From positions 14,645 to 78,644 of the forward strand of contig JAFRPG010000100.1 of the NCBI GenBank assembly GCA_017429265.1: a stretch of 64,000 nucleotides of DNA, read 5' to 3'. The notes beneath the pieces are model-generated. The model ran no database searches. It was given only the letters and a program-made list of their open reading frames with translations, and was not told where the DNA came from. Position 1 is the first letter of the stretch. Every line of letters starts with the position of its first letter. Shown here one piece after another: positions 27,177 through 61,172 of the stretch. The position numbers and the translations under genes are program-made. This stretch comes from Clostridia bacterium. GTDB lineage: Bacteria > Bacillota > Clostridia > Christensenellales > Aristaeellaceae.

Positions 27177-27371
27177 CGGATCGGCCTCCGTCGCGCAGCG
27201 CGGGCGCTGCAGAATGCTTCATTCCGCGCCTGTCAGCGGCGGAAAGGGCTTGTGCGTAGTATAACAGCTTTCCTATCAAAATGCAATATTCGCGGTGCCT
27301 TCCGGACAGGGCGGAACCGCGGACCCGCCGTCCCTCCGGCGCTGCCTCCGCCCGCCGCCCGGCGGCAAAGC

Positions 27372-27407
27372 AAAACCCCTCGCGAACGCACATCCGCAAG
27401 GGGTTTT
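27372..27407 (-). terminator. native tRNA-Trp terminator, now stranded behind the orphan 3' tRNA fragment
   Basis: AAAACCCCT...AGGGGTTTT hairpin plus T-run on the minus strand, immediately after the 24-bp repeat. Confidence 0.6.
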
Positions 27408-27410
27408 ACA

Positions 27411-27434
27411 CAAGCAGGGGCTGAAGGATTCGAA
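27411..27434. repeat. att repeat (orphan 3' end of tRNA-Trp)
   Basis: CAAGCAGGGGCTGAAGGATTCGAA, identical to 34149-34172. The sequence beyond it cannot complete a T-arm or acceptor stem. Confidence 0.9.
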
Positions 27435-27523
27435 TTCTCCGGATGCCATTTTGCCTCGTTTTGTATCATCTCGCAGCCGTTGAGTTTAGCCACTTCGCAA
27501 ACCAAGAGTCTATGTAAGTATGA

Positions 27524-27567
27524 GAGGGTATTAGAATATCAAGGGTATTTGTAAGGGTACAAGGGTC
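27524..27567 (+). promoter_or_regulatory. cluster of AAGGGTA direct repeats (candidate integrase arm-type sites, left end)
   Basis: GAGGGTA 27524, AAGGGTA 27541, AAGGGTA 27553, AAGGGTC 27561. The same motif occurs twice at the right end (34069, 34081). Confidence 0.45.
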
Positions 27568-27897
27568 AGACAACATTTGTCTTCTTTTTACTCCTAGAAA
27601 TCACCTCTAGCACTACCATTATTCCGCATCTTCCTGTGGTTCATTTGTGCCTCCACTGTGCTTCCTTCATTTCAATGCTAACTTGTGTATAAACACATCC
27701 AGCTTATGATATCTATGCCCCAGAAGGCTGAGTATTCGTCTCTGCTTTCCGCCTATGTCTGGTCTCTTCATTTTTAGCTGTTTTCGGACCTCATGTAGTC
27801 GCTGGATCAAATCCTTATGTTAATGGTCTGACGGTCAATTCTCCCTGTCCTCTGCTTTCCCTGCAGTTTGCTCTCCCTTCCTTGTGCTTTCCCGCTT

Positions 27898-28200
27898 TCA
27901 ACCGTACATTATATATTGACGGACAAGGTACGCACTTTCTTCGTCCAGCTCATAGCTCCAGATATCGAGGTATTCATCCCGGCTTTCCTTGTTCTTCCAA
28001 TTCTGCAACATGAGTCCAGCAGCGTCAATCACTAGATAGCCGCTCTCAATTTCCCAAAGGTCGCGCCCATACTTCTGCCGCCATTCTACGTTATCCGCGA
28101 TCATTTCAGTATCAGGCTTATCAATACATTGCACCATGTGGGTGTCGTAGCGGTAGCGGAAAGTCCGCTTTCCACGTTTATAAGGCTTGCTGTATTTCAT
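27898..28200 (-). CDS. hypothetical protein (island cargo, 100 aa)
   Basis: MKYSKPYKRGKRTF... with AAAGGGGA RBS. No motif recognised. Confidence 0.6.
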   Translation of the reverse strand: MKYSKPYKRGKRTFRYRYDTHMVQCIDKPDTEMIADNVEWRQKYGRDLWEIESGYLVIDAAGLMLQNWKNKESRDEYLDIWSYELDEESAYLVRQYIMYG

Positions 28201-28429
28201 GGCTTAGTTTCCCCTTTCTTCTGCTTTCCGGATTAGTTGATGAGGCCGTTCTTCAAAGATCAACAAGAGCTGGTTTTGTCTCGTCTGTTAGATTCAGAAA
28301 TCTCAACGTGTAGAGAAACTTTGATGGTAGCTTTTTGTCATAGTGATTCCTCCTGTCGATTTTGCTGATCAGTTCACAAGAAACAAGGACTATACACTTT
28401 ATCACCACCCTTTTATGCTTGCATGTCGG

Positions 28430-28704
28430 TCATGTAAAGCAGAAACGGCAGACAGTAGAGGTCTTGGCAAACCGGACGAAGGTGTCAGGCTCGGTGGCTT
28501 TCAGAACTTTTGTGTCCAGGCGTGAAGAGGTTACGACTTTCCTGCTTGCTTTCCAACCGCTGCCAGTTATCTCTTCCGTTCCGGCATCGATCATTGCGGA
28601 TTTGAAGCTGTCGCGGATGGCCTCGGCCTGGCGGTCAGTTCGTCAATCTCGTTTTGGATTTCCCGCAGCTCATCGGCTTTGCTGTCGAGTTCGTGAATGG
28701 TCAT
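28430..28704 (-). pseudogene. Gp157-like/phage small protein interrupted by a 1-nt deletion
   Basis: MTIHELDSKADELREIQNEIDELTA then a frame change at GCCAGG (about 28627-28634). The next frame reads AEAIRDSFKSAMIDAGTEEITGSGWKA...VTSSRLDTKVLK...RFCFT*. One extra C restores a ~91-aa ORF. Confidence 0.6.
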
Positions 28705-29046
28705 TCTGGGAGCCTCTCTTTCTGCCTTGCGGCGGTCGTGGTGGAAATGGGTGAAGTTGATCCATCAGAATGGTTTGGGTCTAACAGCAGAAGACGGGAC
28801 GGTCAGACCATCCGGGACGGTGAGCGTGTTTGCCGTGCCGTGCTGACCGGGTCGCAAGCGGCCTTATGTCTTCTGTCTGTTCGCCGGGTATGGCTTGCCC
28901 GGCATACCGCATTACTCTGTCTGTCGTCTATATGATCTTCGTTCGTGTCGCGGTTTCCTCTTTATGGACCTGCCATCATCAGCGCCAAGCGGTCAATCCT
29001 GGCGGACGGTCAGCCGATCTGCTGGCCGTTTCGGCTCGTAGGGGTT

Positions 29047-29535
29047 TTATGCCGGAAGCGTTACGCTTGCCCAGTTGGCGGAGACAATGCGCTCGCTGCC
29101 GTATTTGGCTTTGATCTCGTCAAGAGTCTTCTTTCCACCCTTTGTACAGATGTCGCTATCATCGCGGTAATACCAGGCTTTATGTGAGTGACTCCATCGG
29201 TATCCTGCCGCCTTCAGTTCGTCCCGGCACGGGTATGTGTTGCCCGTTGCCCATAACCAGCGACCTACCAATTCAAGCACAATATCAGGATAATGTGCTG
29301 CAACTTCGACAGCCCGTCGGAATGCATCGGCATCAAACACGCTGTAATCCGTGTTAACCTTCTGTCCAGGCTTGCTATCTCCGGCGAGCCGTTCGGCGGC
29401 TTGCTCATATTGCCGGTTTACTTCCTTCATGGTTTCATCTGAACCGCCATGATCTGGATGGTACTGCATCGCGGCCTTGTGATAAGCCTTCTTCAACTCT
29501 TCGACAGAGGTGCAATGATCAAAGTATTTTGTCAT
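29047..29535 (-). CDS. J-domain (DnaJ-like) protein with an unknown C-terminal domain
   Basis: LKKAYHKAAMQYHPDHGG (HPD motif). C-terminus LELVGRWLWATGNTYPCRDELKAAGYRWSHSHKAWYY. Start set to MTKYFDH. Confidence 0.8.
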   Translation of the reverse strand: MTKYFDHCTSVEELKKAYHKAAMQYHPDHGGSDETMKEVNRQYEQAAERLAGDSKPGQKVNTDYSVFDADAFRRAVEVAAHYPDIVLELVGRWLWATGNTYPCRDELKAAGYRWSHSHKAWYYRDDSDICTKGGKKTLDEIKAKYGSERIVSANWASVTLPA

Positions 29536-29555
29536 TTCTGAGACGCTCCCTTCCG

Positions 29556-29687
29556 TTACAGTCTGTTCTCCCTGATCCACTGAATCCGCTTCTCCAATCG
29601 TTTGTAGTCCTCTGTCTCAATTTCTGTTTCTGTGACCAGCTTGCAGATCAACATGGACAGAATGTCTTTCCAGTTATCCCTTGTCAT
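29556..29687 (-). CDS. small hypothetical protein (43 aa)
   Basis: MTRDNWKDILSMLICKLVTETEIETEDYKRLEKRIQWIRENRL*, with GAGAGGGG upstream. Packed between the 136-aa ORF and the J-protein. Too short for the ORF track. Confidence 0.4.
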   Translation of the reverse strand: MTRDNWKDILSMLICKLVTETEIETEDYKRLEKRIQWIRENRL

Positions 29688-29768
29688 ACTGTACCCCTCT
29701 CTTGGCTTGCCATCATCAGCGGACAGGTTGCCGTCCTGCCCGGACCGGGAAGAGCTCCCGGTTTCGGC

Positions 29769-30179
29769 TTATGCAGTCTGCAATGCTGGGTCCTGTACAA
29801 TGATCCCGTACCGTGTGACTATGTTTTCAATGGCTTGTTTCGCGGCCTTCTTTTGCGTGGTCTCATATATGCTCGGGCTACCGAGTGTGGTATCTGCTTC
29901 ATAAACATGGGTGATTGTCATGGCTTTACCGTCATCGCTCATTGTCACAACGTTATACATCTCTGTGTAAAGACGCTCACTCCTGATGTCCACTGTCAGC
30001 TCAATAGTAGGATTGTCGCGGCCTGCAAGGCGCTTTGCAATGTAGCTGATAGCATTCTGGGTAGCGGTATAGTCGCCGATCTCGAAGAAGGAGAATGTTT
30101 CGGTTCGGTTGATCACGCTGCCGAGTGCAGGTTCATAGATATGGCTGCGAGTTGTGGCGTTTACAGTGAAGGTTGTCAT
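29769..30179 (-). CDS. hypothetical protein (island cargo, 136 aa), first gene of the leftward operon
   Basis: Start MTTFTVNATT after AAAGAAAGAGAGGGA. No motif recognised. Confidence 0.6.
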   Translation of the reverse strand: MTTFTVNATTRSHIYEPALGSVINRTETFSFFEIGDYTATQNAISYIAKRLAGRDNPTIELTVDIRSERLYTEMYNVVTMSDDGKAMTITHVYEADTTLGSPSIYETTQKKAAKQAIENIVTRYGIIVQDPALQTA

Positions 30180-30214
30180 CTGGGATCCCTCTCTTTCTTT
30201 AGTCGATACTTGTT

Positions 30215-30260
30215 TACCACCTATTTGTGGTATGCTTAATACTACCACGTTTAAGTGGTA
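30215..30260. promoter_or_regulatory. two TACCAC-N6-GTGGTA operators in the leftward promoter region
   Basis: TACCACctatttGTGGTA at 30215-30232 and TACCACgtttaaGTGGTA at 30243-30260, 28 bp centre to centre. Confidence 0.6.
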
Positions 30261-30345
30261 TTGTGAATGTATGATCCGGCAATTTGTTCTAGACCATATA
30301 ACACATGTTTGTGTTTATTCTCTAATAACCGCTCCTGTCCGCGCG

Positions 30346-30517
30346 CTGCCGGTCCAGGGAAACTGCCGCTGGTTCAGCGAGCTGCCGCTAGTCCAGGGAG
30401 CCTGCGCCGGTTTAGGGAGCCTGCCGCTGGTAAGGAACCTGCCGCTGGTCCAGGGAGCCTGCCGCCGGTTTAGGGAGCCTGCTGCCGGTCCGGGAGCCTG
30501 CCGCCGATCCGGGGAGC
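30346..30517. repeat. iteron-like array: 9 contiguous 17-20-bp direct repeats (CTGCCGCTGGTCCAGGGAGC consensus)
   Basis: Units begin at 30346, 30363, 30382, 30402, 30421, 30439, 30459, 30479 and 30498. Units 3+4 and 6+7 form a ~40-bp higher-order repeat. A GC-rich block in AT-rich surroundings. Confidence 0.85.
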
Positions 30518-30592
30518 CCACCCTAGGGGAAATGAGCAAAATTATGATCAGCGTTGTTAGTCATTTGAGTAGGCGCTGGAAACAAAAAGGAC

Positions 30593-30621
30593 TTGACTAT
30601 ACCACATTTGCGTGATATAGT
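30593..30621 (+). promoter_or_regulatory. promoter of the XRE gene overlapped by a third operator
   Basis: TTGACT (30593-30598), 17-nt spacer, TATAGT (30616-30621). TACCACatttgcGTGATA at 30600-30617 spans the spacer and -10. Confidence 0.6.
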
Positions 30622-30643
30622 ATTGTTTGAGAAGGAGGTAATT

Positions 30644-30904
30644 ATGTACATGAATGAAAAAGAGATCGTTCGGGCTGCTATTAAGTCCAGGGCCTTGACA
30701 CAGGAAGCGGTTGCAAAAGCCTGTGGGTATCAGCGGCAAAGTAATCTGACACGCCTTCTTGCAAGCGACAGCATGAAGGTCGACAGTTTTCTCATGGTCA
30801 TGGATGCACTGGGATTCGATGTTATTGTCACAGACCATAGCGACGCAACATACTCTTGGAAGCTAGAGAGAATTCATACCGAATCAGCAGATACTATCGG
30901 CTGA
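30644..30904 (+). CDS. XRE-family HTH regulator (candidate island repressor)
   Basis: ATG 6 nt after GAAGGAGG. HTH LTQEAVAKACGYQRQSNLTRLL. Confidence 0.75.
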   Translation: MYMNEKEIVRAAIKSRALTQEAVAKACGYQRQSNLTRLLASDSMKVDSFLMVMDALGFDVIVTDHSDATYSWKLERIHTESADTIG

Positions 30905-32221
30905 TGTGAGAATCAAATACAGTGCCCCGGATGGCTGCCGGAAGCCCTTCTCTTGTACACAACGTTCGAGAATAAAACGTTGCAGCATGTCGCTTTCCGC
31001 TCGATATTCGGCGATCATATCCTTCACACACTGTGGTGGTGTAAGTTTATAGCCATTTTCTATAAAGCGTTTAGCTCCCTCTATTATCCAAGTAAGGATC
31101 GCACCACCACAGTTGTTAACAAGCCAATCAGCATAGTTTTTCTTCTCTCCCGATTGTCCTCGAAATCTGGCATTAAACGGGATTAAGACTAGCCGGTCCC
31201 ATGTGCCATCATCCGTAGCCCGGACCTTGGGTAGGACATTTGTGTAAAGCACGGCGGTATGACTTGGCGTAAAGACGAATCCATCCTTGAATTTGTGTTC
31301 TCCTCGGATGGGATCGGTAGATGAAAGAAGCTTGACGGCTGACGAGTCAAGCCGCTGTCCTTCCCGTAATTCTGCCGCCAAGATAAGACGTTTACCTCTG
31401 AGATCGCCATAGATGAAATTTTTGTTCATCCGAGTGTCTAGTGTCAGGATATCCGCTGGTACGCTGAAGCTATAATCTCCAAGAACCGTTGCTATGGCGT
31501 TGAAGAAGGTTGATTTGCCGTTACCGCCGGGACCGATGGCGATAAAGATTTGTTCACTGTACACTTTACCGATGGCAATCGCTCCCACAACCTCTTGCAA
31601 ATAACACGATAGTTCCTTGTCACTCTCACAGATTGAATCAATGAATTCTAGCCATTTGACGGCTCCATCCCTTGATGGAGAACAACCGGTTATCATGGTA
31701 AGCATGTCTGCAGGGTTATGAGGGTGGACTTCGCCGCTCCTAAGATCAACAGTTCCTGCCGGAGTATTCAAGTATTCCGGGATAGCATCCAGATCTTCAA
31801 TCCTGATCTCCAGATATGGCGCGGCTTCACGAAGAACAGCACTAACTTTGTTTGTCTGCTGATATGTCAGAGCTGATCTCCTATTCATTTGAGCCTGCGA
31901 CTGTTTGTTTCTAGCCTGAGTCGCCTTCAGCTTGTCCCCGTCTCGCTCTGCCTGTTGTTCTTCGATAAGGGCTAATTTCTCCATATTGGACGCGATGTCT
32001 TCTTGAGTCTTCACCAGCTCATGCACCGCCCGCCTTGCATTCTGATCACCCATAACCCAACGTTGGCCATCAAATGACATCCAGCGCGTTGCTTCAGAAT
32101 AACACAGTTTATTTTTGTATCGACTAGCCAGGACGCTCGCTTCTCCAACATCTGTGAAGTGTGTAGGAAAGATTTCAAGGAGGTGGTCGTCATTGATAGG
32201 ATTTAGATGGATTTTGCTCAC
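30884..32221 (-). CDS. D5/P4-family SF3 helicase (phage/plasmid primase C-terminal domain), candidate Rep
   Basis: Walker A AIGPGGNGKST, Walker B LILAAE, D5_N-like N-terminus. No obvious primase (AEP/toprim) domain. Confidence 0.8.
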   Translation of the reverse strand: MSKIHLNPINDDHLLEIFPTHFTDVGEASVLASRYKNKLCYSEATRWMSFDGQRWVMGDQNARRAVHELVKTQEDIASNMEKLALIEEQQAERDGDKLKATQARNKQSQAQMNRRSALTYQQTNKVSAVLREAAPYLEIRIEDLDAIPEYLNTPAGTVDLRSGEVHPHNPADMLTMITGCSPSRDGAVKWLEFIDSICESDKELSCYLQEVVGAIAIGKVYSEQIFIAIGPGGNGKSTFFNAIATVLGDYSFSVPADILTLDTRMNKNFIYGDLRGKRLILAAELREGQRLDSSAVKLLSSTDPIRGEHKFKDGFVFTPSHTAVLYTNVLPKVRATDDGTWDRLVLIPFNARFRGQSGEKKNYADWLVNNCGGAILTWIIEGAKRFIENGYKLTPPQCVKDMIAEYRAESDMLQRFILERCVQEKGFRQPSGALYLILTSADSIC

Positions 32222-32510: not shown

Positions 32511-32864
32511 TTCATTGCTCCTTTCTCGCAAAATAGACAAAAAGCGCCTTGTGCATTTCTCGCACAAGGCGCCGTCTTATCATAGAACGGAGTATCACCG
32601 TTCGCCCATATCGTAGCACTTTCGGCAACACATGTCAAGCCAATTTCACGACCAAAATACTCTTGCCAAAACCATACTTCTGTGATATATTATATAAGGA
32701 AACAATATATCATCACTTTAAATATCACGTAAGCATTTATGAAATTATTTTTACACTATTCTATAAAACGTGATCTTCCCACTATTGATTCAGAAGGATT
32801 CCAAAAGACTTTGGGGGATTCTGCGATACTCTGCAAGATTCTTGGAAAAACGGAGGTAACCCAA

Positions 32865-34049
32865 ATGGCAACAAAAAAGAGCAACACGAGAGCCGCAAAC
32901 GGAAACGGGACAATTCGTCAGCGTGCTGATGGGAGATGGGAGGGTCGCCTAACCGTTGAGTGGGATGCCGGAAGCGGAAAGCAAAAACAACGCTCCTTCT
33001 ATGGATGGAGTCAAAAAGAGGTCGCAGAAAAACTGCGGGCTGCTGCTGTTGAACGAGATAAAGGTCTCAACGTCAAAACGCCGGAGAAAATCACTGTCTC
33101 CTCCTGGCTTCAAACATGGTTAACGACATACTGCACCACAATTAAACCGAACACGCTATACACCTACAAAAAGCAAGTTGATTGCCGGATAGTCCCTGCA
33201 CTCGGCGCTGTTAAACTGACTGCACTTCGACCGGACCAGGTGCAGAAATCCGTGAATAATCTTACGAAGGGTGATGATCCGCTTTCCCCCAAAAGCATCA
33301 AAAACTGCGTTGCTGTCCTGCGTTCAGCCATGACCAGGGCTGTCCAGAATGACCTGATTCGGAAGAACCCTTGCGATAACGTAGAACTTCCCAAAGCAAA
33401 GAAAAAAGAAATCCAGCCATTGGACGAGACCGGTATCGCTGAGTTTATGAAAGCCATAAGCGGCCATCATAACGAGCTCATATTTAAGATTGCATTGTTT
33501 ACGGGTATGCGTCAGGGGGAACTGATGGGTCTAAAGTGGAGTGATATAGATTTTGACAAGGGATTGATCACCATTCAGAGACAGCTTGTACACGGAAAAA
33601 CCAAGGGAACGGGTTACAGTATGGCCAGCACAAAAACAGATGCTATCAGGACCATCAGACCCGCTCCCCTAGTGCTGGATTGGTTAAAGTCATGGCAAAA
33701 AGAACAATCCGCTTTACGTCTTCGTTTCGGTAAACAGTGGGGTGACAATTTCGGTGGATTGGTTTTCACTGATGTCACCGGTCAACATCTATGTCATTCA
33801 ACATTGACACATGAAGCCCGGCGTTTCGGGAAAGCTATTGGCAAACCGGATCTACGCTTTCACGATCTTCGGCACTCGTATGCGGTCATGTGCATACGAG
33901 CTGGAGATGACTTTAAAACTATCAGTTCAAACTTAGGTCATACTACCATCACGATAACAATGGATATTTACGCAGCGTTCACAAACGATATGGCCCTGGC
34001 TTCGTCAAACAGAATGACCGCATATATGCAGAGTATCGGGGTAGGTTGA
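32865..34049 (+). CDS. int: tyrosine-type site-specific integrase
   Basis: R (TGMRQGEL), H-x-x-R (HDLRHSYA), LGHTTITITMDIY catalytic Tyr. ATG after GGAGGT. Lies adjacent to the tRNA. Confidence 0.9.
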   Translation: MATKKSNTRAANGNGTIRQRADGRWEGRLTVEWDAGSGKQKQRSFYGWSQKEVAEKLRAAAVERDKGLNVKTPEKITVSSWLQTWLTTYCTTIKPNTLYTYKKQVDCRIVPALGAVKLTALRPDQVQKSVNNLTKGDDPLSPKSIKNCVAVLRSAMTRAVQNDLIRKNPCDNVELPKAKKKEIQPLDETGIAEFMKAISGHHNELIFKIALFTGMRQGELMGLKWSDIDFDKGLITIQRQLVHGKTKGTGYSMASTKTDAIRTIRPAPLVLDWLKSWQKEQSALRLRFGKQWGDNFGGLVFTDVTGQHLCHSTLTHEARRFGKAIGKPDLRFHDLRHSYAVMCIRAGDDFKTISSNLGHTTITITMDIYAAFTNDMALASSNRMTAYMQSIGVG

Positions 34050-34087: not shown

Positions 34088-34108
34088 ATTGGCCTTATTT
34101 CGGTATGC

Positions 34109-34143
34109 AAAACCCCTTGGAAACGCTTGATTTCCAAGGGGTT
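34109..34143 (-). terminator. element-supplied terminator for the reconstituted tRNA-Trp
   Basis: AACCCCTTGGAAA-loop-TTTCCAAGGGGTT followed by TTTTG on the minus strand. Begins and ends like the native terminator at 27372-27407. Confidence 0.6.
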
Positions 34144-34148
34144 CCGCT

Positions 34149-34172
34149 CAAGCAGGGGCTGAAGGATTCGAA
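34149..34172. repeat. att repeat (3' end of the intact tRNA-Trp)
   Basis: Identical to 27411-27434. Confidence 0.9.
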
Positions 34173-34223
34173 CCCTCAACAAAGGTTTTGGAGACCCACG
34201 TGTTACCATTACACCAAGCCCCT
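34153..34223 (-). tRNA. trnW: tRNA-Trp (anticodon CCA)
   Basis: Hand-folded: acceptor AGGGGCT/AGCCCCT, D arm GTGT-AATGGTA-ACAC, anticodon loop CTCCAAA, T arm GAGGG-TTCGAAT-CCTTC, discriminator G. CCA is not encoded. Confidence 0.85.
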
Positions 34224-44566: not shown

Positions 44567-44639
44567 GGTCGCATGGCTCAGTTGGTAGAGCACATCGTTC
44601 ACATCGATGGGGTCACAGGTTCGAGTCCTGTTGCGACCA
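44567..44639 (+). tRNA. trnV: tRNA-Val (anticodon CAC)
   Basis: Hand-folded: acceptor GGTCGCA/TGCGACC, D arm GCTC-AGTTGGTA-GAGC, anticodon stem CATCG/CGATG with loop TTCACAT, T arm ACAGG-TTCGAGT-CCTGT, discriminator A. Confidence 0.85.
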
Positions 44640-44648
44640 CACACCCAC

Positions 44649-44687
44649 GAAGAAGCTTGAGAAATCAGGCTTCTTTCTTTTTTGCCT
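44649..44687 (+). terminator. terminator after the intact tRNA-Val (element side)
   Basis: GAAGAAGC-loop-GCTTCTT then TTTCTTTTTT. Confidence 0.6.
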
Positions 44688-44739
44688 CGCCTCCCTGGGG
44701 GGTACAAAAATCGGCTGTTACAGGGTACATTCTCTTGGC

Positions 44740-44876
44740 GTGAACAGAATAGGCGGACACTCCGTACACGCCCATATAGGTGTGAACGGATTGGTCGCTG
44801 AATGTGAACGGGATGCCGGAATTGATGTGAACGAATTGCTGGCTTTGGTGTGCACAGATTGCCTTTTGATGTGAAC
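44740..44876 (+). repeat. six GTGAAC-core direct repeats at ~22-bp spacing
   Basis: GTGAAC at 44740, 44782, 44804, 44827 and 44871; GTGCAC at 44850. Extended consensus tGTGAACnnAtTG. Confidence 0.75.
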
Positions 44877-44939
44877 CGTAGCCCGGATACACAGAAAAAG
44901 AACAGGGCCGAAGCCCTGAAAGAAAACTTCTCGACCAGG

Positions 44940-46514
44940 TTACTCCTGGCCGAGGAATTGCTGCATGGAAATTCTGAACTGAATGTGGAGCTTATATCCA
45001 GTGGTTACCTCCACGCGCTGAATGAGTCTGGTTACAATCATATGCTTGGTACTGATGTCAGCCGCCTCATAACAATCGGCCCATGAGACGAGCTCATCGA
45101 TCTGCGCCTTCGTTTTCTTAGCATTCGATGCTTCTTCCTCCGTGCGAGCTTTGGCGTCAACCATGGCTTGGCGGGCGGTTTCAAGCTTTGCCCGGTGCTT
45201 CAACAGCATGGAATTGACGACATTCAAGTCCAGCGCACTTTCACCGGTCAGCGCTTTGACCGCTTCCTCCTCCAGCGCCGTTACCTGCTTCTGGGCATTT
45301 TCAAAATCTCTCTCGGCCTGTTTATATGCGATCCGATAGGTCTCTTCATTCCTGGCACTCGCCATTTTCACCATCTTCTCACGAGGTACCGACTTTACCT
45401 TGGCAAAGAATTCCCGTACTTGATCCTCAACTGCTTGATTAATGACGTTTGCCTTGTAAGCGGATTGCCCGTCGCATGACTTCCTGGATGAAATTTTCCG
45501 GTAGCAGCGGTAAACCTCATAATCATATGCTGCAATTGATCCATCAGCAAGTGCTCTTTCGTCATGGTGGTGGTTGAAAGCGAGCCGGCAGCCGCAGTGA
45601 GCGCAGTAGAGAATGCCGGAGAGCAGGCTCCTAGAATCCGTACGTAGTGGTGTCTCCAGATCGTTGCCAGCCGTTTTTGTGCATCGGCCCTTTACTGTTT
45701 GCTGACACCTGATGTACATGTCTTCATCAATGATCTTGAGATGTTCAAACGGTTCCGATTTCGCTCCCTGCATATGGTATATTCCGATGTAGATGGGATT
45801 ATCGATGATTGCCCGGATTGAAGTACCCCGCCAAAGCGTTGTTCCCCGCTTCGTCTTGATTCCCTTATCATTCAGGTACTGGGCGACACGGTTTGTACCA
45901 TATCCACGGTTCGTCAGCAGATCAAAGATTTCTCTGACAATTGTTGCTTCCTCTTCGTCAACAACCAGATCTTTGACAGGCTGGTTTTTCTTGTTTGTGC
46001 GCCCATGATACTCCAGTTTGTAGCCAAATGGAAGCTTTCCTCCGCGGTACTGACCCTCTTGCACCATCTGCATATGTTTCGTTTTTACGCGGATGGAGGT
46101 CTTTTCACTTTCTCCGGACGCCTGCCAAAAACGGATGTAGTTCAGCAGTTTGTCCACATGATTGTCAAAACGCTGCTCCCCTTCCCTTGCGCTCCAGACC
46201 TCAATTCCCTGCTGAGCAAACCACTGGACTACAAAGGGCGTTTCATCGTCACGTCTGCCGAGGCGGTCGAACATGAAGACCAGCAGCACATCGAACTGAT
46301 GCGTGATAGCCCTCTTTTTGATCTCGACGATGGCATCCCGAGCATTGGCGCTGACCTTGTAACCAGAAACGCCCTTCTCGGAAATCTCATCTACAATCTC
46401 CCAATCCGGATGTGTCGCTGCATACTCGCGACAGGCCAGTTTTTGCATCGGGATATCATCGTGATCCACCTGGCCAACAGTGGAAACACGGTAAAGGCAA
46501 ATCACCCGTTTCAT
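44940..46514 (-). CDS. large serine recombinase
   Basis: N-terminal resolvase domain (VICLYRVSTVGQ), recombinase domain, zinc ribbon (CAHCGCRL...YRCYRK), coiled coil. ATG 6 nt after GGAGGTG. Confidence 0.9.
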   Translation of the reverse strand: MKRVICLYRVSTVGQVDHDDIPMQKLACREYAATHPDWEIVDEISEKGVSGYKVSANARDAIVEIKKRAITHQFDVLLVFMFDRLGRRDDETPFVVQWFAQQGIEVWSAREGEQRFDNHVDKLLNYIRFWQASGESEKTSIRVKTKHMQMVQEGQYRGGKLPFGYKLEYHGRTNKKNQPVKDLVVDEEEATIVREIFDLLTNRGYGTNRVAQYLNDKGIKTKRGTTLWRGTSIRAIIDNPIYIGIYHMQGAKSEPFEHLKIIDEDMYIRCQQTVKGRCTKTAGNDLETPLRTDSRSLLSGILYCAHCGCRLAFNHHHDERALADGSIAAYDYEVYRCYRKISSRKSCDGQSAYKANVINQAVEDQVREFFAKVKSVPREKMVKMASARNEETYRIAYKQAERDFENAQKQVTALEEEAVKALTGESALDLNVVNSMLLKHRAKLETARQAMVDAKARTEEEASNAKKTKAQIDELVSWADCYEAADISTKHMIVTRLIQRVEVTTGYKLHIQFRISMQQFLGQE

Positions 46515-46519
46515 TCTGA

Positions 46520-46843
46520 TCACCTCCGACTGAAGTTGGCGCTGCTAAGCATTGTCAGTACATCTGCCAAGGCCGTCTCATCTGGTTCGTCTGCAAAAGA
46601 AAGCGTGATTTCGCAGAAAGGCTGACCAGCGAAAAGCCTAGTGTTTACAGACTTTCTACGCTTGATAGCAGTAGTACTATTGGCTCTGTTGCCGGTACTA
46701 ATCAAGTTATCATTCGGAGATGATTCTGTTATGTTTTCTGGTTGTGTGGACACTGTCAGATCTGCGCTCTGTAGCCCGTTCCGTCGGCAGAATGCCTTCA
46801 CCGACCCAAGCGGAACCTTAAGCTCGCTGGCGATCGTGGCATC
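46520..46843 (-). pseudogene. remnant ORF with an HTH-like segment, N-terminally truncated by an in-frame TAA
   Basis: The frame reads *DATIASELKVPLGSVKAFCRRNGLQS... with no plausible start before the HTH. The track start (46801) is a GTG inside the HTH. Confidence 0.35.
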
Positions 46844-46967
46844 TTAGTCACCCGGACATAGATTCATTCTTAAGCGTATCCCGTTCCGTTCTTATCACGA
46901 GGCCTGTATGGTTTGCTCCTGCGATGACCGCTTCCGTCCGCACCATCATCGGACATCTTGATTTTAC

Positions 46968-47054
46968 TACTAACGTTATTAGTTGTCAATATGAAATACT
47001 TGCGTTATTAGTTCATGAGTGTTATCATCACTATGGAGTGTTATCATTACAATG
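46968..47054 (+). promoter_or_regulatory. two sets of direct repeats upstream of the RHH gene
   Basis: TACT[AA/TG]CGTTATTAGTT at 46968-46984 and 46997-47013. Tandem 19-mers GAGTGTTATCATCACTATG / GAGTGTTATCATTACAATG at 47017-47054 abut the RBS. Confidence 0.6.
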
Positions 47055-47065
47055 GAGGTGAGCCA

Positions 47066-47278
47066 ATGCCAAAGAAACAGACAGAATGGTCAAGAGCATA
47101 TAACGAAAAAACCTATGACCGTCTCGCAATAACAATTCCCAAGGGCCGTAAGGCAGATGTGGAGACTTTAGCCTCCAAGGCCGGGGAATCCGTCAACGGT
47201 CTTATAAACAGCCTATTGCGTGATGCAATGGGCAAAACCGAAGAAGAATGGAAGAGTAAACCAGTGCGTGATGAATGA
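47066..47278 (+). CDS. ribbon-helix-helix (CopG/Arc-like) DNA-binding protein
   Basis: YDRLAITIPKGRKADVETLASKAGESVNGLINSLLRDAMG. ATG after GGAGGTG. Confidence 0.7.
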   Translation: MPKKQTEWSRAYNEKTYDRLAITIPKGRKADVETLASKAGESVNGLINSLLRDAMGKTEEEWKSKPVRDE

Positions 47279-47639
47279 ATGGGTACGCCGATATGAACAG
47301 CCTTCCGCATGGTGATGCCATTCAATACCATTCATGACGCCTACGGCAGGCCGGCGGACAGCTGTATAACCGCGCGATGGCGAATGCCTTGCGTTCGATG
47401 CAAACAGTTTCGTGAATGAAGACGCGCGTGATATGCACCACATCATCCGTGATATGAACAAGAATGCAGCCAACCTATGCGCATAAAAAAACGCCCAATG
47501 GGCTGGGTGCAAACGGGTGCAGATTTGGGTGCAATTCTGAAACATGTGTGCACGTCTCAACAAGTCAAAATACGTGATGTGGCTTGAATCGTATGCTTGC
47601 ACACGTCTCTGCATGACCAGGCACGTGACATCCTACAAA

Positions 47640-47660
47640 TTCGAGTCCTGTTGCGACCAC
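47640..47660. repeat. orphan 3' end of tRNA-Val (att repeat)
   Basis: Identical to 44620-44640. Confidence 0.9.
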
Positions 47661-47663
47661 TCC

Positions 47664-47698
47664 GGGAGCCCTTGTAAATCAAGGGCTCCCGTTTTTTT
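47664..47698 (+). terminator. native tRNA-Val terminator
   Basis: GGGAGCCCTT-gtaaatc-AAGGGCTCCC followed by TTTTTTT. Confidence 0.7.
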
Positions 47699-47893
47699 AT
47701 CCCAAAATACGACAACCGTACGACAATTATACGACAACGCCGTTTTCCATGGACTCATAAAACCGCTGCATACGGGCTGAACTTGCCTTCATCAGCTGGA
47801 ATCCCCGTCCTGTTGGATGAACGGGAACGTTCCGGCCTTTGTCGATAGATCCGATCCGCATTCCCTGAAGGCTGCGAATACGACCCTGGACGA

Positions 47894-48706
47894 TCACTGC
47901 GGCTCTTCGCGATACGTCAGGCGCTCCAGGTCCTCACCCGCGGCGGAGAGGGACCGGCGGAGGGCGTACTCACGGGGAGACACGCCCTCCTGCGCGCGGA
48001 ACACCCTCGAGAAATACCGCTCGTCCACGTAGCCGCACAGTTCCGCCACCCGAGCGACGGACAGGTTCATGGCCTGCTTCTGTTCAAGAAGATGCCTGGC
48101 GTAGTCCATGCGCAGATGGGTGAGGAACTCCGTCGGCGTAAGGCCTGTCTCGTCCTTGAACAGCTTTCGGATGTAATTCTCCGTGTATGGTGTGGAGCGC
48201 AGGATCTGCGGCAGATCCAGATTCGGATCCGCAAAGTTTTCGGTGATCCGCTCCTTGATCTGCTCCACCAGCGGCTGCGGAGTCCGCACGGCGGCCCTGA
48301 CGGCGAGCAGCTGCATGAGATCCCGGAAGAGGGCGAGGACGATCCCTTTCTCCTCCGGCTTTTTCCGGTAGTAGAGGTTGAAGACCGCCTTGATCAGGCC
48401 GGTAAGAGTGCCGGCGCTGTCGTCCTGCAGGAGCAGTGGGCGGCTTTCGTCGAAGCGCAAACCTTCCGCGGAGAGGAATTCATCCGTGTAGAAGAAGTAA
48501 TCACGGAAGCCCTCCGCGGAAGTTTTGAAGTGGGTGACGTGCGGCGGGATGCAGGTCACCGTCCCCACGGTAAAAGGCACTTCCCGGCCGCCCATGGTCA
48601 GGGTGCCGCTGCCCTCGGTATTCACGCAGAATTCCCACAGCTCATGGGAGTGGGGAACGCATTCCGTCATCGTCTGTCTGCAGTAACCCAGTGCGCAAAG
48701 TTTCAT
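47894..48706 (-). CDS. AraC-family transcriptional regulator (cupin + HTH)
   Basis: C-terminal AraC HTH (YFSRVFRAQEGVSPREY). Divergent from a sugar-phosphate operon. Confidence 0.85.
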   Translation of the reverse strand: MKLCALGYCRQTMTECVPHSHELWEFCVNTEGSGTLTMGGREVPFTVGTVTCIPPHVTHFKTSAEGFRDYFFYTDEFLSAEGLRFDESRPLLLQDDSAGTLTGLIKAVFNLYYRKKPEEKGIVLALFRDLMQLLAVRAAVRTPQPLVEQIKERITENFADPNLDLPQILRSTPYTENYIRKLFKDETGLTPTEFLTHLRMDYARHLLEQKQAMNLSVARVAELCGYVDERYFSRVFRAQEGVSPREYALRRSLSAAGEDLERLTYREEPQ

Positions 48707-55614: not shown

Positions 55615-57957
55615 CTACTCCTCAATCACATAATACCCGTAGCTTTCGGCCCACTGCACCCACTGGCTGCCTGCGGGCACAATCAGTGTCATGCCGGGGT
55701 CAAAGGCGTCCGGAGCAATGGAGGTCACATTGCCGGGGATGCGGATGGCGTCGACTAAGGGGGTGCCAATGAATGCCTCGGCATCGATGACAGAGAGAGA
55801 TTCCGGAAGAGTGAGGATGACTGTTGGATAGCAGTAAAGATGTGCCGCCATGAGAGGGTAATTGTTATCGCCAACGGAGATTTGGTCCCACTGTTCTCGT
55901 ATGCCATCGTATAAAACATCTTCCAAATCAGGGCAGTAAGCAAAGGCAGCTTCACCAATAGTGGTTAAACTGGAAGGAAGCGTCACGTTGGTCAATTGGC
56001 TGCATCCTAAAAAGGCTGCGGTTTCAATAGTTGTAACTCCTGAAGGGATCTTGATGCTTGCCAAATTCGTGCAGCTAAAAGCTTCCGATCCAATTATTCT
56101 CACACTTTGAGGGATGCTGATGCTGACTAAATCTTCGTTGCCATAAAAAGCACCATCCTGAATGACGACGACACCGTCCGGAATGACGTAGGAGTTTCCT
56201 TTCTTGTTCGGATAACATAGCAATTCCGTTTTTTCCTTGTTAAACAGCACGCCATTGATAGAACAGTATGACGGATTGTCGGGATCCACATCAATGTATG
56301 CCAAATTGATGTTGCCATAGTTAAAGTTGATCTGATCAATATAAGTCACACTCGCAGGAATGGAGATAAACCTCAGATCGCAGTAACCCAAAGCGCCAAA
56401 TCCAATGCTGGTGACAGAATCCGGGATAATGATGTTTTGTAGATTACTCTTGCCCTGAAAAGCCCAGGTAGCAATCTGTGTCACTCCATATGGGATTGAA
56501 ACAGATGTAGCGTTACCTGCATATACATGCAACACATTATTGATAATCAGAAAGCCGTTACTGTCCACCAGTCCTACGCACTCCTGGAATGCGCCTTCTC
56601 CAATATGCACAGCAGTTTCCGGAAGTGATAGAGCCGTCAGGTTTTCGCAGTATTCAAAAGCATAATCCCCAATACTGGTCACTGAGGATGGAATTGAAAC
56701 GCTTGTTAAGCCATTACAGAACGAAAATGCATGGTCTTTTATGGTTTGAACACCATTGATCATTGCCGCTGTGGTAATGCCTGAGCTATCGAATGCGTAT
56801 CTTCCAATGCTTCGTACATTCCCTGGAATCACAACCCCTGAAATGGCAGAACAACATGAAAACGCATAGTCACCGATGGCGGTGACATTGTCCGCAATCA
56901 CTAACATGTCTTTTGCGCTTGGATAACAAATCAGGGTTGTGCCGGCTTTATCCAGTATCATTCCATTTACTGCGGAATAATTGGCGTTGCCGGAACTGAT
57001 GCTGATATCTGTCAGTTGAGTACAGTAAAGGAATGTGCCTTGCGCAATCTTGGTGACTCCGGCAGGTATTGAGATGCTTGTCAGCCCATTGCAGCCTGCG
57101 AAAGCAGATTGGCATATTTGGGTTACACTGTCCGGAATGGCAATGGATGTTGCGCTCCCCTCATAGCTGATCAGTTTACCGTTGATGACGCAAAAACCAT
57201 TTTCATCAATCAAATTGGTACAACCGCCGAATGCATGCTCGCCAATGTATTCAATGTCGTCAGGGAGCGTAATGTTTTCCAAACCGATGCAGTCATAGAA
57301 TGCATAACTACCAATTCCCGTAATGCTGTGAGGAATTGTCACATTTGCCAGGCTTGTGCAACCGCGAAAAGTACTATCTTCAATTCCGGTAACCCCGTTC
57401 GGAACTGTAAAGCTCGTCAGGCTACTGCAACCAGCAAAAGCATACCAGTTGATCCTGGTAACACTGCTCGGGATCGAAATGCTCGTCAAACTACTGCAGT
57501 TATAGAAAGCATATTCGCCAATACTGGTGACGCTATCGGGAATCGTAATGCTCATCAAAGATCTGCAGTTATAGAAAGCGTATTCGCCAATACTGGTGAT
57601 GCTGTTTGGGATCGTAACGCTTGTAAGCTCCGTATCTCCGAGAAAGAGATGGCAACTATTGCTTGCACAATTCGGATGGCTTCGATTATTGGAACTGTCA
57701 AAATCGATTGACAACCATGACGCTATGCTGAATATATGGATTTCACTCAGGTTGCTGCAGTTGTAGAAAGCAGTGCTGCCAATACTGGCAACACTTTCAG
57801 GGATTGTAATGCTGGTCAAGCTGCTGCAGCCGGAGAAAGCGGAACCACCAATGTCGGTGACGTTTTCGGGAATTACAATGCTGGTCAAACTGCTGCAGCC
57901 GGAGAAAGCGGAGTTGCCAATACTGCAGACGCTTTCCGGAATTGCGATGTCGGCCAA
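55615..57957 (-). CDS. BspA-type leucine-rich-repeat surface protein, C-terminal part (frameshifted continuation of 57885-59177)
   Basis: Dozens of IPxSVTSIGxxAFxxCxSLTSI repeats and no signal peptide. The frame stays open upstream to a TGA inside an A-run at about 58040. Confidence 0.8.
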   Translation of the reverse strand: MADIAIPESVCSIGNSAFSGCSSLTSIVIPENVTDIGGSAFSGCSSLTSITIPESVASIGSTAFYNCSNLSEIHIFSIASWLSIDFDSSNNRSHPNCASNSCHLFLGDTELTSVTIPNSITSIGEYAFYNCRSLMSITIPDSVTSIGEYAFYNCSSLTSISIPSSVTRINWYAFAGCSSLTSFTVPNGVTGIEDSTFRGCTSLANVTIPHSITGIGSYAFYDCIGLENITLPDDIEYIGEHAFGGCTNLIDENGFCVINGKLISYEGSATSIAIPDSVTQICQSAFAGCNGLTSISIPAGVTKIAQGTFLYCTQLTDISISSGNANYSAVNGMILDKAGTTLICYPSAKDMLVIADNVTAIGDYAFSCCSAISGVVIPGNVRSIGRYAFDSSGITTAAMINGVQTIKDHAFSFCNGLTSVSIPSSVTSIGDYAFEYCENLTALSLPETAVHIGEGAFQECVGLVDSNGFLIINNVLHVYAGNATSVSIPYGVTQIATWAFQGKSNLQNIIIPDSVTSIGFGALGYCDLRFISIPASVTYIDQINFNYGNINLAYIDVDPDNPSYCSINGVLFNKEKTELLCYPNKKGNSYVIPDGVVVIQDGAFYGNEDLVSISIPQSVRIIGSEAFSCTNLASIKIPSGVTTIETAAFLGCSQLTNVTLPSSLTTIGEAAFAYCPDLEDVLYDGIREQWDQISVGDNNYPLMAAHLYCYPTVILTLPESLSVIDAEAFIGTPLVDAIRIPGNVTSIAPDAFDPGMTLIVPAGSQWVQWAESYGYYVIEE

Positions 57958-59177
57958 ATTCTTGCAATTGGTGAACCAATACCTGGGAATCGATGAAGGC
58001 TCACATTCAAAGACAGCGGAAACAATCTTGCTTTTTCATCTTTCCAAGGGACAGCATAATCACTTGAGACATCGGATATAACACAAGATGGCAAAATGGT
58101 CAGGACGCCGTTTGAAATGCTCCAGCGATCTGACTGATAGTAAAGCGTATAGCTTGGTAATGCGGATGTTCCTTTGTTGATACGCGACCACATATCAGGT
58201 GTGCCTGTATAGTGAACTTTAACACTATAGGTATAATCAAACGCTTTACTGCCAATACTGGTAACACTTTCCGGAATTGTGATATCCAAATTGGAATACA
58301 GGCACCAGGAAAAAGCTTCACTGCCTATGCTGGTGACACCGTCTGGGACCACGATTTTTCTTAACCTTTCACATCCGTAAAAAGTCCCGTACTTGATATC
58401 AGTGATTCCTTCAGGCAGCATTATAGTTGATAGATTTCTGCAATCCATGAAAGCACTAAATCCTATACTTGTCACATTATTCGGTATTACGATAGTACTC
58501 AAATCGCGACATTCCCGGAAAGCACCATCACCTATGGATGTTACGCTGTTCGGTAACGTAAGGCTTTGGATTCTGGAGTTTTCGAAGGCATGGTTGCCAA
58601 CTTTTGTTACGCAATCTGGAATTTGCACAGACTGCTTATTTGGCGGACACCAAATCAAGACAGTCATATCGAAACTGTAGAGAATGTCATCCACCGAAGC
58701 AAAACAAGCATTTGAATCTGATACGCCAATGCTTCTCAGATTGGTACAGTATCTGAACGCTCCATCGCCTATGATGGTGACATTATCCGGTATTGTGATG
58801 CTCGTTAAACTTTTGCAGCTATAGAACGCATAGAATCCAATAGTCGTCACACTATCTGGTATTGTGATGCTTGTCAGGCTGTTGCAACCAGAAAAAGCGT
58901 ATTTTCCAATATTGGTGACACCTGATACAATGTTTACCGACTGGATTGATGTCCGATTCGTGTACCATGGTATGTTACTGTCGGATGTAGATGTATAATC
59001 CTTCATCTCCCCAGACCCGCTGATTGTTAGCGTTCCGGCATCATCCAGCGACCATGTCAGATTATCACCGTTTACACCACAACTCCCGCTGGCCACAGTG
59101 CTCGCCGATGCCACGCCGCACCAAAGCACACCAACCAGCACCGCAACCACCAATATCCACTTAAGCACTTTTTTCAC
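57885..59177 (-). CDS. BspA-type leucine-rich-repeat surface protein, N-terminal part with signal peptide
   Basis: GTG start 7 nt after GGAGG. VKKVLKWILVVAVLVGVLWCGVASA signal peptide, GDNLTWSLDDAGTLTISGSG module and LRRs. The last ~35 aa look out of frame. Confidence 0.8.
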   Translation of the reverse strand: MKKVLKWILVVAVLVGVLWCGVASASTVASGSCGVNGDNLTWSLDDAGTLTISGSGEMKDYTSTSDSNIPWYTNRTSIQSVNIVSGVTNIGKYAFSGCNSLTSITIPDSVTTIGFYAFYSCKSLTSITIPDNVTIIGDGAFRYCTNLRSIGVSDSNACFASVDDILYSFDMTVLIWCPPNKQSVQIPDCVTKVGNHAFENSRIQSLTLPNSVTSIGDGAFRECRDLSTIVIPNNVTSIGFSAFMDCRNLSTIMLPEGITDIKYGTFYGCERLRKIVVPDGVTSIGSEAFSWCLYSNLDITIPESVTSIGSKAFDYTYSVKVHYTGTPDMWSRINKGTSALPSYTLYYQSDRWSISNGVLTILPSCVISDVSSDYAVPWKDEKARLFPLSLNVSLHRFPGIGSPIARIWPTSQFRKASAVLATPLSPAAAV

Positions 59178-59179
59178 TA

Positions 59180-59422
59180 TCAGTTCCTCCCTCTCCAATA
59201 AGCATCATTCTCAACCGCAATCCTGATCTTCTCTGCGCATTCCGTCTGCGTAACTTCGTCTTTCTCCAGCCACTTCACCAGTTCTGCAGTCAGGAACGCA
59301 TCCAGCAGCCGGTTGACCACCCGGATTACCTGCAGCTCATCGTCCTGCCGATAGCAGAACGTCGGCAGACTGTTCTCCCCGTGGGAAGATGCACACCGCA
59401 GCTTGTACGGCACCCACATCAC
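59180..59422 (-). CDS. small hypothetical protein
   Basis: 80-aa ORF between the 278-aa orphan and the LRR gene. No motif; start uncertain. Confidence 0.3.
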   Translation of the reverse strand: MMWVPYKLRCASSHGENSLPTFCYRQDDELQVIRVVNRLLDAFLTAELVKWLEKDEVTQTECAEKIRIAVENDAYWRGRN

Positions 59423-60825: not shown

Positions 60826-61172
60826 TGGTGGAGATGAGGGGAGTCGAACCCCTGTCCGAAAGCTCTGATTCAGGACTTTCTCCGAGCGCAGTCTGTGATT
60901 TGACATTCCCTCCGCGCCCCGCCCGCAGACAGGCTGGGCGCTTCAGTAGCTTCATATTACGGACATGCTGCAAAGCTTGGGCATGTTCGTTCCCCGCGTA
61001 AATGACGTCAGGAACCGGCCACGCGGGCAGACCGGGCTGACGTCACCGCCTATCAGGCGGCGAAAGCGAAATCGCTGTTGTCAGTTCAATTTAATTTCCC
61101 GTTGTTATGCGGTCCAGGGCCGCAGCTCGCTTATCCTGCCTCCGACACTCCCGTCGAAACCGGATCATCCCC
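60826..61172 (-). ncRNA. ssrA: tmRNA (SsrA)
   Basis: 5' GGGGATGATCCGGTTTCGACGGG, 3' GGTTCGACTCCCCTCATCTCCACCA, G3-U70 in the acceptor stem. Tag frame ...GAC AAC AGC GAT TTC GCT TTC GCC GCC TGA TAG. Immediately downstream of smpB. Confidence 0.9.

Follow-up and report, generated by a model that had tools for sequence, protein, structure and literature searches.

Two predicted type II hammerhead ribozymes bracket a J-domain gene in the probable early operon of a small phage-derived integrative element

Hammerhead ribozymes that occur in clusters within prophage-like elements were described by Perreault et al. in 2011 (PMC3088659), who found that they flank single genes or short gene blocks near integrases, that they cleave in vitro and, in one case, in vivo into fragments of the expected sizes, and that the flanked genes "are not constant" in identity. 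Here we analyse positions 27898 to 30179 of a 64,000-nucleotide (nt) stretch of bacterial DNA (contig JAFRPG010000100.1; hereafter, the window is the whole of this stretch), a leftward series of small open reading frames (ORFs) belonging to an integrated element of about 6.74 kb. Since the 2011 study had already reported clustered prophage hammerheads flanking genes, the arrangement that we find in this series is known in kind. Our two ribozymes share with the prophage examples the type II topology, the intact core, the pseudoknot and the nearby integrase, and as a pair they likewise flank a short block of genes; they differ in that they reside in a 6.7-kb island without structural genes and in that the flanked gene encodes a J-domain protein. 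Beyond the inconstant gene identities noted earlier, the hammerhead recurs, in our survey, at the boundary of the J family in several lineages. We propose, with moderate confidence, that the region is a repressor-controlled early accessory operon of a phage-derived integrative element, in which ribozymes would cut the transcript and the J protein would recruit DnaK; its nearest analogue would be the pL/exo-xis side of a lambdoid phage.

In RiboJ-type synthetic insulators, a hammerhead set immediately before the ribosome-binding site (RBS) cuts off whatever RNA precedes it, and the cistron is then headed by a 5'-OH and a hairpin; the upstream ribozyme of our locus (HH1) has the same placement and would have the same effect. 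HH1 and its partner HH2 differ from RiboJ in being natural, in their type II permutation and in the presence of a second ribozyme on the 3' side, and insulation is here predicted from the sequence. For the protein, the closest described counterparts are Rki of phage RB43 (PMC3486835) and the polyomavirus T antigens, which are likewise small viral proteins; each combines a J domain with an HPD motif and is expected to commandeer Hsp70/DnaK. The protein described here is unlike them outside the J domain, where no similarity is found and where it carries a C-terminal alpha/beta domain without a solved or annotated relative.

The evidence that carries our reading lies in the spacers between the ORFs (Table 1). 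Both ribozymes align over the full length of the Rfam model RF02276 (positions 1-66 of 66), and HH2 scores above the curated gathering score of 37 bits. Judged by the core expected of a hammerhead (C3-U4-G5-A6-N7-G8-A9, G12-A13-A14, an A15.1-U16.1 pair and a base other than G at position 17), the catalytic core is complete in both (GCC GAA A...U C^ ... CUGAUGA), the GAAA, GUC and CUGAUGA elements of HH2 being intact. Stem III comprises 8 bp in each, and stem I 8 bp in HH1 and 7 bp in HH2; stem II is open (GGC/GCC, with one extra U after A9) and stems I and III are closed by loops, as in the type II permutation. Loop I pairs with the 3' tail in a pseudoknot (GGC/GCC, 3 bp, in HH1; GACC/GGUC, 4 bp, in HH2) of the type that is needed for fast cleavage and that in the majority of the hammerheads of Perreault et al. 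(PMC3088659) has four or more pairs, compared with which that of HH1 is short. The stems and the pseudoknot covary among 12 related hammerheads, and a strict structural descriptor returned HH1 and HH2 as its sole matches in the 64 kb, with none in 60 dinucleotide-preserving shuffles.

HH1 overlaps the 136-amino-acid (aa) ORF by one base, which is the first of the ribozyme and the last of the stop codon, and it fills the spacer to the 43-aa ORF, ending 12 nt before its ATG and entering the RBS with its 3' tail. HH2 begins 10 nt after the stop codon of the J gene. The initial annotation had recorded a gap of some 340 bp at this point, and 342 nt (28705-29046) are indeed without a listed ORF, but the stretch is far from empty, for it begins with HH2. 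The RNA between the two predicted cuts measures 738 nt and carries the 43-aa and J-domain ORFs. Two canonical type II hammerheads, as judged from their sequence and predicted fold, hence appear to bracket these two ORFs and should release the 738-nt RNA; they are the most informative features of the region, and the initial annotation overlooked them.

Table 1. Coordinates in the window of the operon, its switch and the remaining modules of the island
Feature	Coordinates	Strand	Basis or remark
attL-side direct repeat, left island end	27370..27439	.	Copies the 3' part of tRNA-Trp and downstream bases
100-aa ORF, near-orphan	27898..28200	-	One homologue (L088)
12-aa ORF, putative	28303..28341	-	AGGAGG seven nt upstream; no comparative support
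Frame-shifted small coiled-coil phage gene ("Gp157-like")	28430..28704 (pieces 28591-28704, 28430-28594)	-	Homologues L032, L087
Non-coding leader, HH2 to frame-shifted gene	28705..28963	-	Comparison with L087
HH2, type II hammerhead	28964..29036	-	Rfam RF02276, 41.7 bits; predicted cleavage after C29005
J-domain protein, 162 aa, phage-specific C-terminal alpha/beta domain	29047..29535	-	Pfam DnaJ, phrog_15863
43-aa ORF, lineage-specific	29556..29687	-	Good RBS, ORF list
HH1, type II hammerhead	29700..29769	-	Rfam RF02276, 32.0 bits; predicted cleavage after C29743
136-aa orphan ORF, first gene after promoter, variable slot	29769..30179	-	ATG preceded by AAGAGAGGG
Two operators TACCAC-N6-GTGGTA, perfect inverted repeats over leftward promoter	30215-30232, 30243-30260		Inverted-repeat pattern
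Leftward promoter TTCACA-17-TAGTAT, sigma-70-like	30267..30239	-	Sequence pattern
Iteron-like 20-nt repeats, ~8.8 copies, probable replication origin	30348..30518	.	Repeat search
Rightward (divergent) promoter and third operator (30600-30617), driving helix-turn-helix (HTH) gene	30593..30904	+	Pattern
HTH_37 repressor-like gene	30644-30904 (ATG 30644)	+	Pfam/PHROG profiles
D5_N/DUF5906 helicase (P4-family primase C-terminal), without primase domain	30884..32221	-	Family profiles
Cox/Xis-like HTH protein, 91 aa	32292..32567	-	phrog_575, E 6e-4
Tyrosine integrase	32739..34049	+	Pfam Phage_integrase and Phage_int_SAM_3
tRNA-Trp and attR-side repeat, right island end	34107..34223 (tRNA 34152-34223)	-	tRNA and repeat searches

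Further support comes from a related element that is present in two independent assemblies, one from ENA (L087) and one from JGI (L092), and whose J protein is 62% identical to ours. There the same operators and promoter are followed by a 78-aa ORF, HH1, the J gene, HH2, a leader of ~225 nt and an intact coiled-coil gene. The 78-aa ORF is unrelated to the 136-aa protein and fills its slot, and the 43-aa ORF is missing, HH1 directly preceding J. Similarity between the window and L087 starts about 10 nt before HH1 and stops just after it, and HH1 is 91% identical between the two, against 68% for the DNA of the J gene; these sharp limits suggest that HH1 is a discrete conserved block at a junction where the neighbouring genes differ. 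HH2 is 73% identical to its L087 copy, in which stem I has been rebuilt by compensatory changes (CGCCAGG/CUUGGCG in the window against CGGCGGGG/UCCCGCCG). When the HH1 motif was used as a query, IMG/VR yielded no match and JGI a single contig, L092, which represents the element of L087.

The initial annotation had also placed a switch region at about 30180, with a same-strand accessory operon leaving it, and this proved sound, as the region holds a promoter-like site, the operator pair that covers it and the divergent promoter of the repressor gene. The operator pattern has five strand-wise matches at three sites and none elsewhere in the 64 kb, against a chance expectation of 0.01, and operators of the same type flank the promoter of the related element L087. 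The three operators of the island can also be written as TACCAC-N6-GTGRTA. No intrinsic terminator was predicted on the minus strand in the scanned stretch 27300-30950, which makes a single transcription unit from the leftward promoter plausible.

The model that we propose for this unit runs as follows. Upon derepression, transcription would start from the operator-covered leftward promoter, and both ribozymes would cleave themselves during or soon after transcription to yield three RNAs. The first would be the mRNA of the 136-aa protein, ending in the stem III hairpin of HH1 with a 2',3'-cyclic phosphate. The second would be the 738-nt RNA, with a 5'-OH; a stem I hairpin would stand some 45 nt in front of its RBS, and its 3' end would form a stem III hairpin. 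The third, likewise with a 5'-OH at its start, would comprise the leader and, beyond it, the frame-shifted gene with the 12- and 100-aa ORFs. With the transcript so divided into pieces with defined ends, the ribozymes would act as natural insulators, setting the ends, stability and translation efficiency of each cistron block and uncoupling the J cassette from its neighbours. The J protein, its HPD motif intact, would direct DnaK to a phage or host target, most plausibly one involved in replication or host take-over, roles for which the polyomavirus T antigen and RB43 Rki provide analogues. The distal ORFs would be lineage-specific add-ons, and so would the first slot, which encodes 136 aa here and 78 aa in L087.

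As to the protein itself, the J-domain call of the initial annotation is borne out by a match to Pfam DnaJ (PF00226) of 31.7 bits against a cut-off of 27.8 (E 1.7e-7) and by an HPD tripeptide (H26-P27-D28) that is invariant among 28 family members. Residues 1-152 align with positions 146-300 of the 312 of phrog_15863, a family whose function is not annotated (E 3.1e-39). An AlphaFold2 (AF2) model built from 28 sequences (predicted local distance difference test, pLDDT, 79) places J-domain helices at residues 11-25 and 33-51, together with an alpha/beta domain at the C-terminus, the conserved motif of which is ELxGxWLWxxGxT...LKAAG..W...K.WY. Neither Foldseek (PDB, BFVD) nor a PDB profile search found a relative of this domain; the J domain alone was recognised, with the J domains of polyomavirus T antigens among the best PDB profile matches. 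We infer that the protein recruits host DnaK/Hsp70 to the target of its C-terminal domain. The proportions of nonsynonymous and synonymous differences from L087 (pN/pS 0.24/0.67) point to purifying selection on the J gene, as the values from its own comparison do for the 100-aa ORF discussed below. In PADLOC the protein has a marginal match to ZorC (E 0.0028, 32 residues).

Homologues of the J protein form 72 clusters in our protein collection and occur on at least 530 IMG/VR viral contigs and in a few cultured phages, of Enterococcus, Fusobacterium and Cellulophaga. We examined 80 of the IMG/VR loci. A D5 helicase lies within 8 kb of J at none of them, and J lies 1-3 kb from a tyrosine integrase at 15, a position that would correspond to the early accessory region of temperate phages. 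One homologue (L004:4849-9811) is part of an integrative/conjugative-type element, where it adjoins KwaA/KwaB, which we take to be Kiwa defence genes, and FRG and NOV_C proteins; this suggests that the J family reaches beyond phage early operons. A separate observation concerns genes that adjoin J in L006:897-1460 and L001:1268-1885, the products of which end in VKAAGF.WS...W. This is similar to LKAAG..W...K.W, the core of the C-terminal domain in the J protein (window 29047-29300; hhalign probability 27-32%), and the two may represent a small domain shared by ribozyme-punctuated operons.

Ribozymes recur around J in the same 80 loci. In L009/L012 (Rfam 59 bits), L041 and L058, credible type II hammerheads are situated 28-41 nt upstream of J; a hammerhead is found 332 nt upstream in L020/L021 (Rfam 45 bits) and another 76 nt downstream in L053, while in L006, L068, L071 and L072 the operon of J contains hammerheads at a distance of 2-3.6 kb. 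In L006 (L006:799-874 and L006:1467-1530), a Pistol ribozyme (Rfam 62 bits) precedes J at a distance of one gene and a type II hammerhead follows 3.6 kb downstream, so that different ribozyme classes appear to punctuate operons of one kind. Visual inspection of L006 also suggested a hammerhead-like arrangement of type I immediately before J, which Rfam did not confirm and which is tentative. In several unrelated phage lineages, a hammerhead ends 28-41 nt before the J start or begins 15-76 nt past the J stop. It is conceivable, if on balance unlikely, that ribozymes at J boundaries form a conserved expression signal, that cleavage is required for a translatable, stable and possibly circular J mRNA, and that the blocks serve as linkers for cassette exchange in phage early operons; if true, this would give bacterial hammerheads a defined biological role.

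Spacers of another sort were seen in L001 (L001:1880-5310; ENA ERZ27256878 k141_2062581), a phage-like contig with a J homologue of 51% identity. A repeated spacer of ~115 nt, with two or three GC-rich hairpins, an invariant GCCCCGRAAYCATTTCA and an RBS, stands before each of 6-7 small genes; these spacers match no Rfam family and show little covariation. The spacer motif RCGCCCCGRAAYCATTTCA occurs 2-3 times in four unrelated IMG/VR contigs (L097, L100, L102, L107), sometimes just before an RBS and sometimes inside ORFs, and L097 also carries a type II hammerhead. The L001 spacer might serve as a promoter specific to the phage, bind a protein or be a site of RNA processing, in the role that the hammerheads would play here.

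All ORFs listed by the initial annotation are present on the minus strand where it had placed them, and the 136-, 100- and 43-aa proteins, which it had left unassigned, found no usable defence, fold or family match in Pfam, PHROGs, PADLOC, NCBIfam, our protein collection, a PDB sequence search or AF2 combined with Foldseek. The 136-aa ORF has a good RBS and is without comparative support as a gene: the protein itself was the sole true match among 5.8 billion clusters searched with a word index and in an exhaustive phmmer search of 1.84 billion representatives. Weak matches of this protein to immunoglobulin-like/cadherin (Big_9/cadherin) repeats of giant adhesins are probably compositional, and its single-sequence AF2 model (pLDDT 69; predicted template modelling score, pTM, 0.63) has no structural neighbour in Foldseek. 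The 43-aa ORF, too, is without comparative support; its RBS and start are similar to their counterparts in the 136-aa and frame-shifted genes (repeat families D5/D9). The 100-aa ORF has its homologue, 59% identical, on a 632-nt contig with a different gene context, and a pN/pS of 0.24/0.76 in this comparison indicates that it is a real gene. The strong RBS that had been ascribed to the 12-aa ORF is likewise in place.

The remaining gene of the operon has lost one base between 28631 and 28630 (GCT CAG in L087, GC CAG here), and because the lesion is found in all three independent assemblies checked (L089-L091), the frameshift is a genuine mutation and not a sequencing error. Once repaired, the product is a coiled-coil protein of 92 aa. 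It shares 47% identity with an intact 89-aa ORF located behind the J gene of L032 and, over its N-terminal 34 residues, 68% with the L087 copy, which is cut short by the end of its contig. Its weak PHROG matches (434, 6244, 1956) include the C-terminal region of a "RecE-like exonuclease" family. Thus, the frameshift noted in the initial annotation is real, but the Gp157 label attached to it finds no support, since the repaired protein matches no Pfam family even at E<=10; the intact L032 homologue, too, has no match to Sipho_Gp157 (PF05565), its sole match being a weak one to a KR domain (E 0.011). The leader that precedes this gene is 60% identical to the equivalent stretch of L087. A search for a hidden non-coding RNA in these 260 nt gave no Rfam match and a folding z of -1.08, which is not exceptional; one hairpin covaries with L087, two sequences being available, and the leader motif has no matches in JGI metagenomes.

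Turning to the island as a whole, the host window is GC-rich (about 62-70%), and a low-GC stretch of 45-53% spans ~27.4 to 34.2 kb, with a drop from about 70% to about 50% at its left end. As tRNA-Trp and a direct repeat of the 3' part of this tRNA border the stretch, it is an integrated element of about 6.74 kb; its site is tRNA-Trp, and its host is a high-GC bacterium that carries a Clostridia annotation. The direct repeats comprise D3 (27397-27439 versus 34135-34177, 86% identical) and D10 (27370-27389 versus 34107-34126). The initial description of a small integrative element with an integrase and a D5-type helicase is accordingly upheld. The helicase finds its best phage matches, at 41-43% identity, in helicases of full-size Oscillospiraceae, Ruminococcus and Streptococcus phages. 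With the iterons placed between the divergent promoters, the 6.7-kb element has a clean module of repressor and probable origin. The same island, with its chromosomal flanks and site, is found in at least nine metagenome contigs, and a scan of GTDB genomes for related islands by way of the D5 helicase returned one irrelevant locus.

The island has much in common with phage satellites, such as phage-inducible chromosomal islands (PICIs), P4-like elements and the 7-20 kb satellites of Streptococcus thermophilus (PMC10085698, PMC13376191): an integrase with flanking attachment (att) repeats at a conserved site, a replication module of its own (D5_N/DUF5906 helicase and 20-nt iterons, comparable to the P4/D5 helicases and iterons of satellites), a repressor switch (HTH_37 and three operators), an accessory operon and no structural genes. 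It differs from them in being smaller than those described, in lacking recognisable packaging, capsid-remodelling and helper-sensing genes and in having a helicase nearest to those of complete phages. No gene by which such an element might take over the particles of a helper (terS, capsid-size redirection, packaging interference) and no capsid gene of its own was recognised in Pfam, PHROGs, NCBIfam or PADLOC, and the unassigned orphans leave room for novel ones.

Several observations weigh against our favoured reading of a repressor-controlled operon whose transcript is cut by ribozymes. HH1, at 32.0 bits (E 3.4e-5 in a local search of 151 nt), falls below the gathering score. Its copy in the related element (L087:654-722 and L092:575-644, minus strand) has C for U at core position 4 (CCGAUGA) in both assemblies, so that cleavage at the HH1 site could be dispensable. 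This copy, a natural core variant, keeps all stems and the pseudoknot. About 70 of the 80 J loci have no ribozyme adjoining J, which suggests that a ribozyme is not required for J expression in general and that the link between hammerhead and J, while recurrent, is not obligatory. With one of its genes frame-shifted, part of the operon may be decaying. Finally, the role of the gene association of bacterial hammerheads was still undetermined in a 2019 review (PMC6765202), and for this reason "insulation" is our interpretation of the arrangement.

The initial annotation saw in the orphan ORFs, from their position, the candidate payload of a satellite (helper interference, packaging redirection or anti-phage cargo) and the likeliest seat of any undescribed system, and the island does possess the minimum that such an element needs: integrase, Xis-like protein, switch, helicase with iterons, att sites and no structural genes within 6.7 kb. 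The slot after the promoter varies between relatives, as accessory and defence slots often do, and the J homologue of L004 has KwaA/KwaB and other candidate defence genes as its neighbours. Set against this, PADLOC returned no system match, and nothing for the five ORFs other than J; no homologue of terS or of capsid-size or packaging genes emerged from any library searched; and the helicase, as noted above, is closest to those of full-size phages. The two genes that can be recognised, J and the small coiled-coil gene, occur commonly in complete temperate phages, as ordinary early genes of these. Nor do the orphans co-occur outside the island: the 136-aa protein is found nowhere else, the 100-aa protein once and in another context, and the slot in L087 holds the unrelated 78-aa ORF, so that the payload reading fails the co-occurrence check which the initial annotation had itself proposed. 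An anti-phage payload or new defence system is thus unsupported for this operon, and that the 136-, 100- and 43-aa proteins, possibly together with J, act on a helper or its packaging or serve in defence seems to us rather unlikely. Still less probable is that the island is a decaying prophage remnant in which most small ORFs are leftovers or chance ORFs and the ribozymes are relics. The fixed frameshift, the 260-nt non-coding stretch, the orphans without homologues, the att repeats of 86% identity and the HH1 core variant in L087 would all fit such decay, but the att sites, integrase, helicase, iterons and three perfect operators are intact, pN is much lower than pS for both the J gene and the 100-aa ORF, the two hammerheads retain intact cores, their stems differing from those of L087 by compensatory changes, and the island sequence is stable across at least nine samples.

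A different fate could also be imagined for the excised RNA, in that RtcB or the reverse reaction of the ribozymes might ligate the 738-nt J RNA into an exonuclease-resistant circular mRNA, in the manner of retrozymes and viroid-like RNAs. Joining the ends would restore a hammerhead, now a chimera with its 5' half taken from HH2 and its 3' half from HH1, and such a chimera would fold, as both ribozymes are type II and the halves of their stem II are identical (AGCC ... UGGCA); the cassette boundaries are, moreover, kept in L087. In retrozymes, viroid-like RNAs and viral tandem ribozymes, too, two hammerheads of the same orientation enclose an RNA of several hundred nt with ligatable ends, eukaryotic tandem hammerheads giving circles of 600-1000 nt (PMC5680766) and tandem ribozyme pairs of RNA viruses enclosing small RNA segments (10.1101/2024.05.16.594327). 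Those RNAs, however, are non-coding or replicating eukaryotic circles, whereas ours would be a DNA-encoded bacterial mRNA with two ORFs. Perreault et al. (PMC3088659), who searched for circular or spliced products of clustered prophage hammerheads, detected neither, in other phages J commonly has a single hammerhead on one of its sides, and nothing in the sequence requires circularisation. We therefore regard both the circular mRNA and the chimeric ribozyme that it implies as very improbable, and retain the ribozyme-cut transcript of a repressor-controlled operon as our favoured reading.

Two further stretches of the window deserve mention, apart from the island. A second low-GC stretch (44567-48000) directly follows tRNA-Val (44567-44640) and contains a large serine recombinase (44940-46523, minus strand; Resolvase, Recombinase and Zn_ribbon_recom); it is probably another integrated element. 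The lowest GC content of the window (42-47%) is found at 55615-59198 and 60826-61172, about 1.6 kb from the tmRNA gene, where two BspA-type leucine-rich-repeat proteins (LRR_5) are encoded, and this may be a horizontally acquired surface-protein locus.

Taken together, the identifiable biology of this region resides in what had been listed as a gap and in the short intergenic spacers, and not in the orphan ORFs. The role of hundreds of hammerhead, twister, pistol and hatchet ribozymes of bacteria and phages is undetermined (PMC6765202), and the locus described here is a compact one, in which one operator-controlled promoter and two ribozymes are combined with a predicted excised RNA of 738 nt that encodes a recognisable protein. 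A natural relative with a core-substituted ribozyme and the recurrent adjacency of hammerhead and J together make a concrete pair with which the control of phage early mRNA stability and translation by cleavage can be tested.

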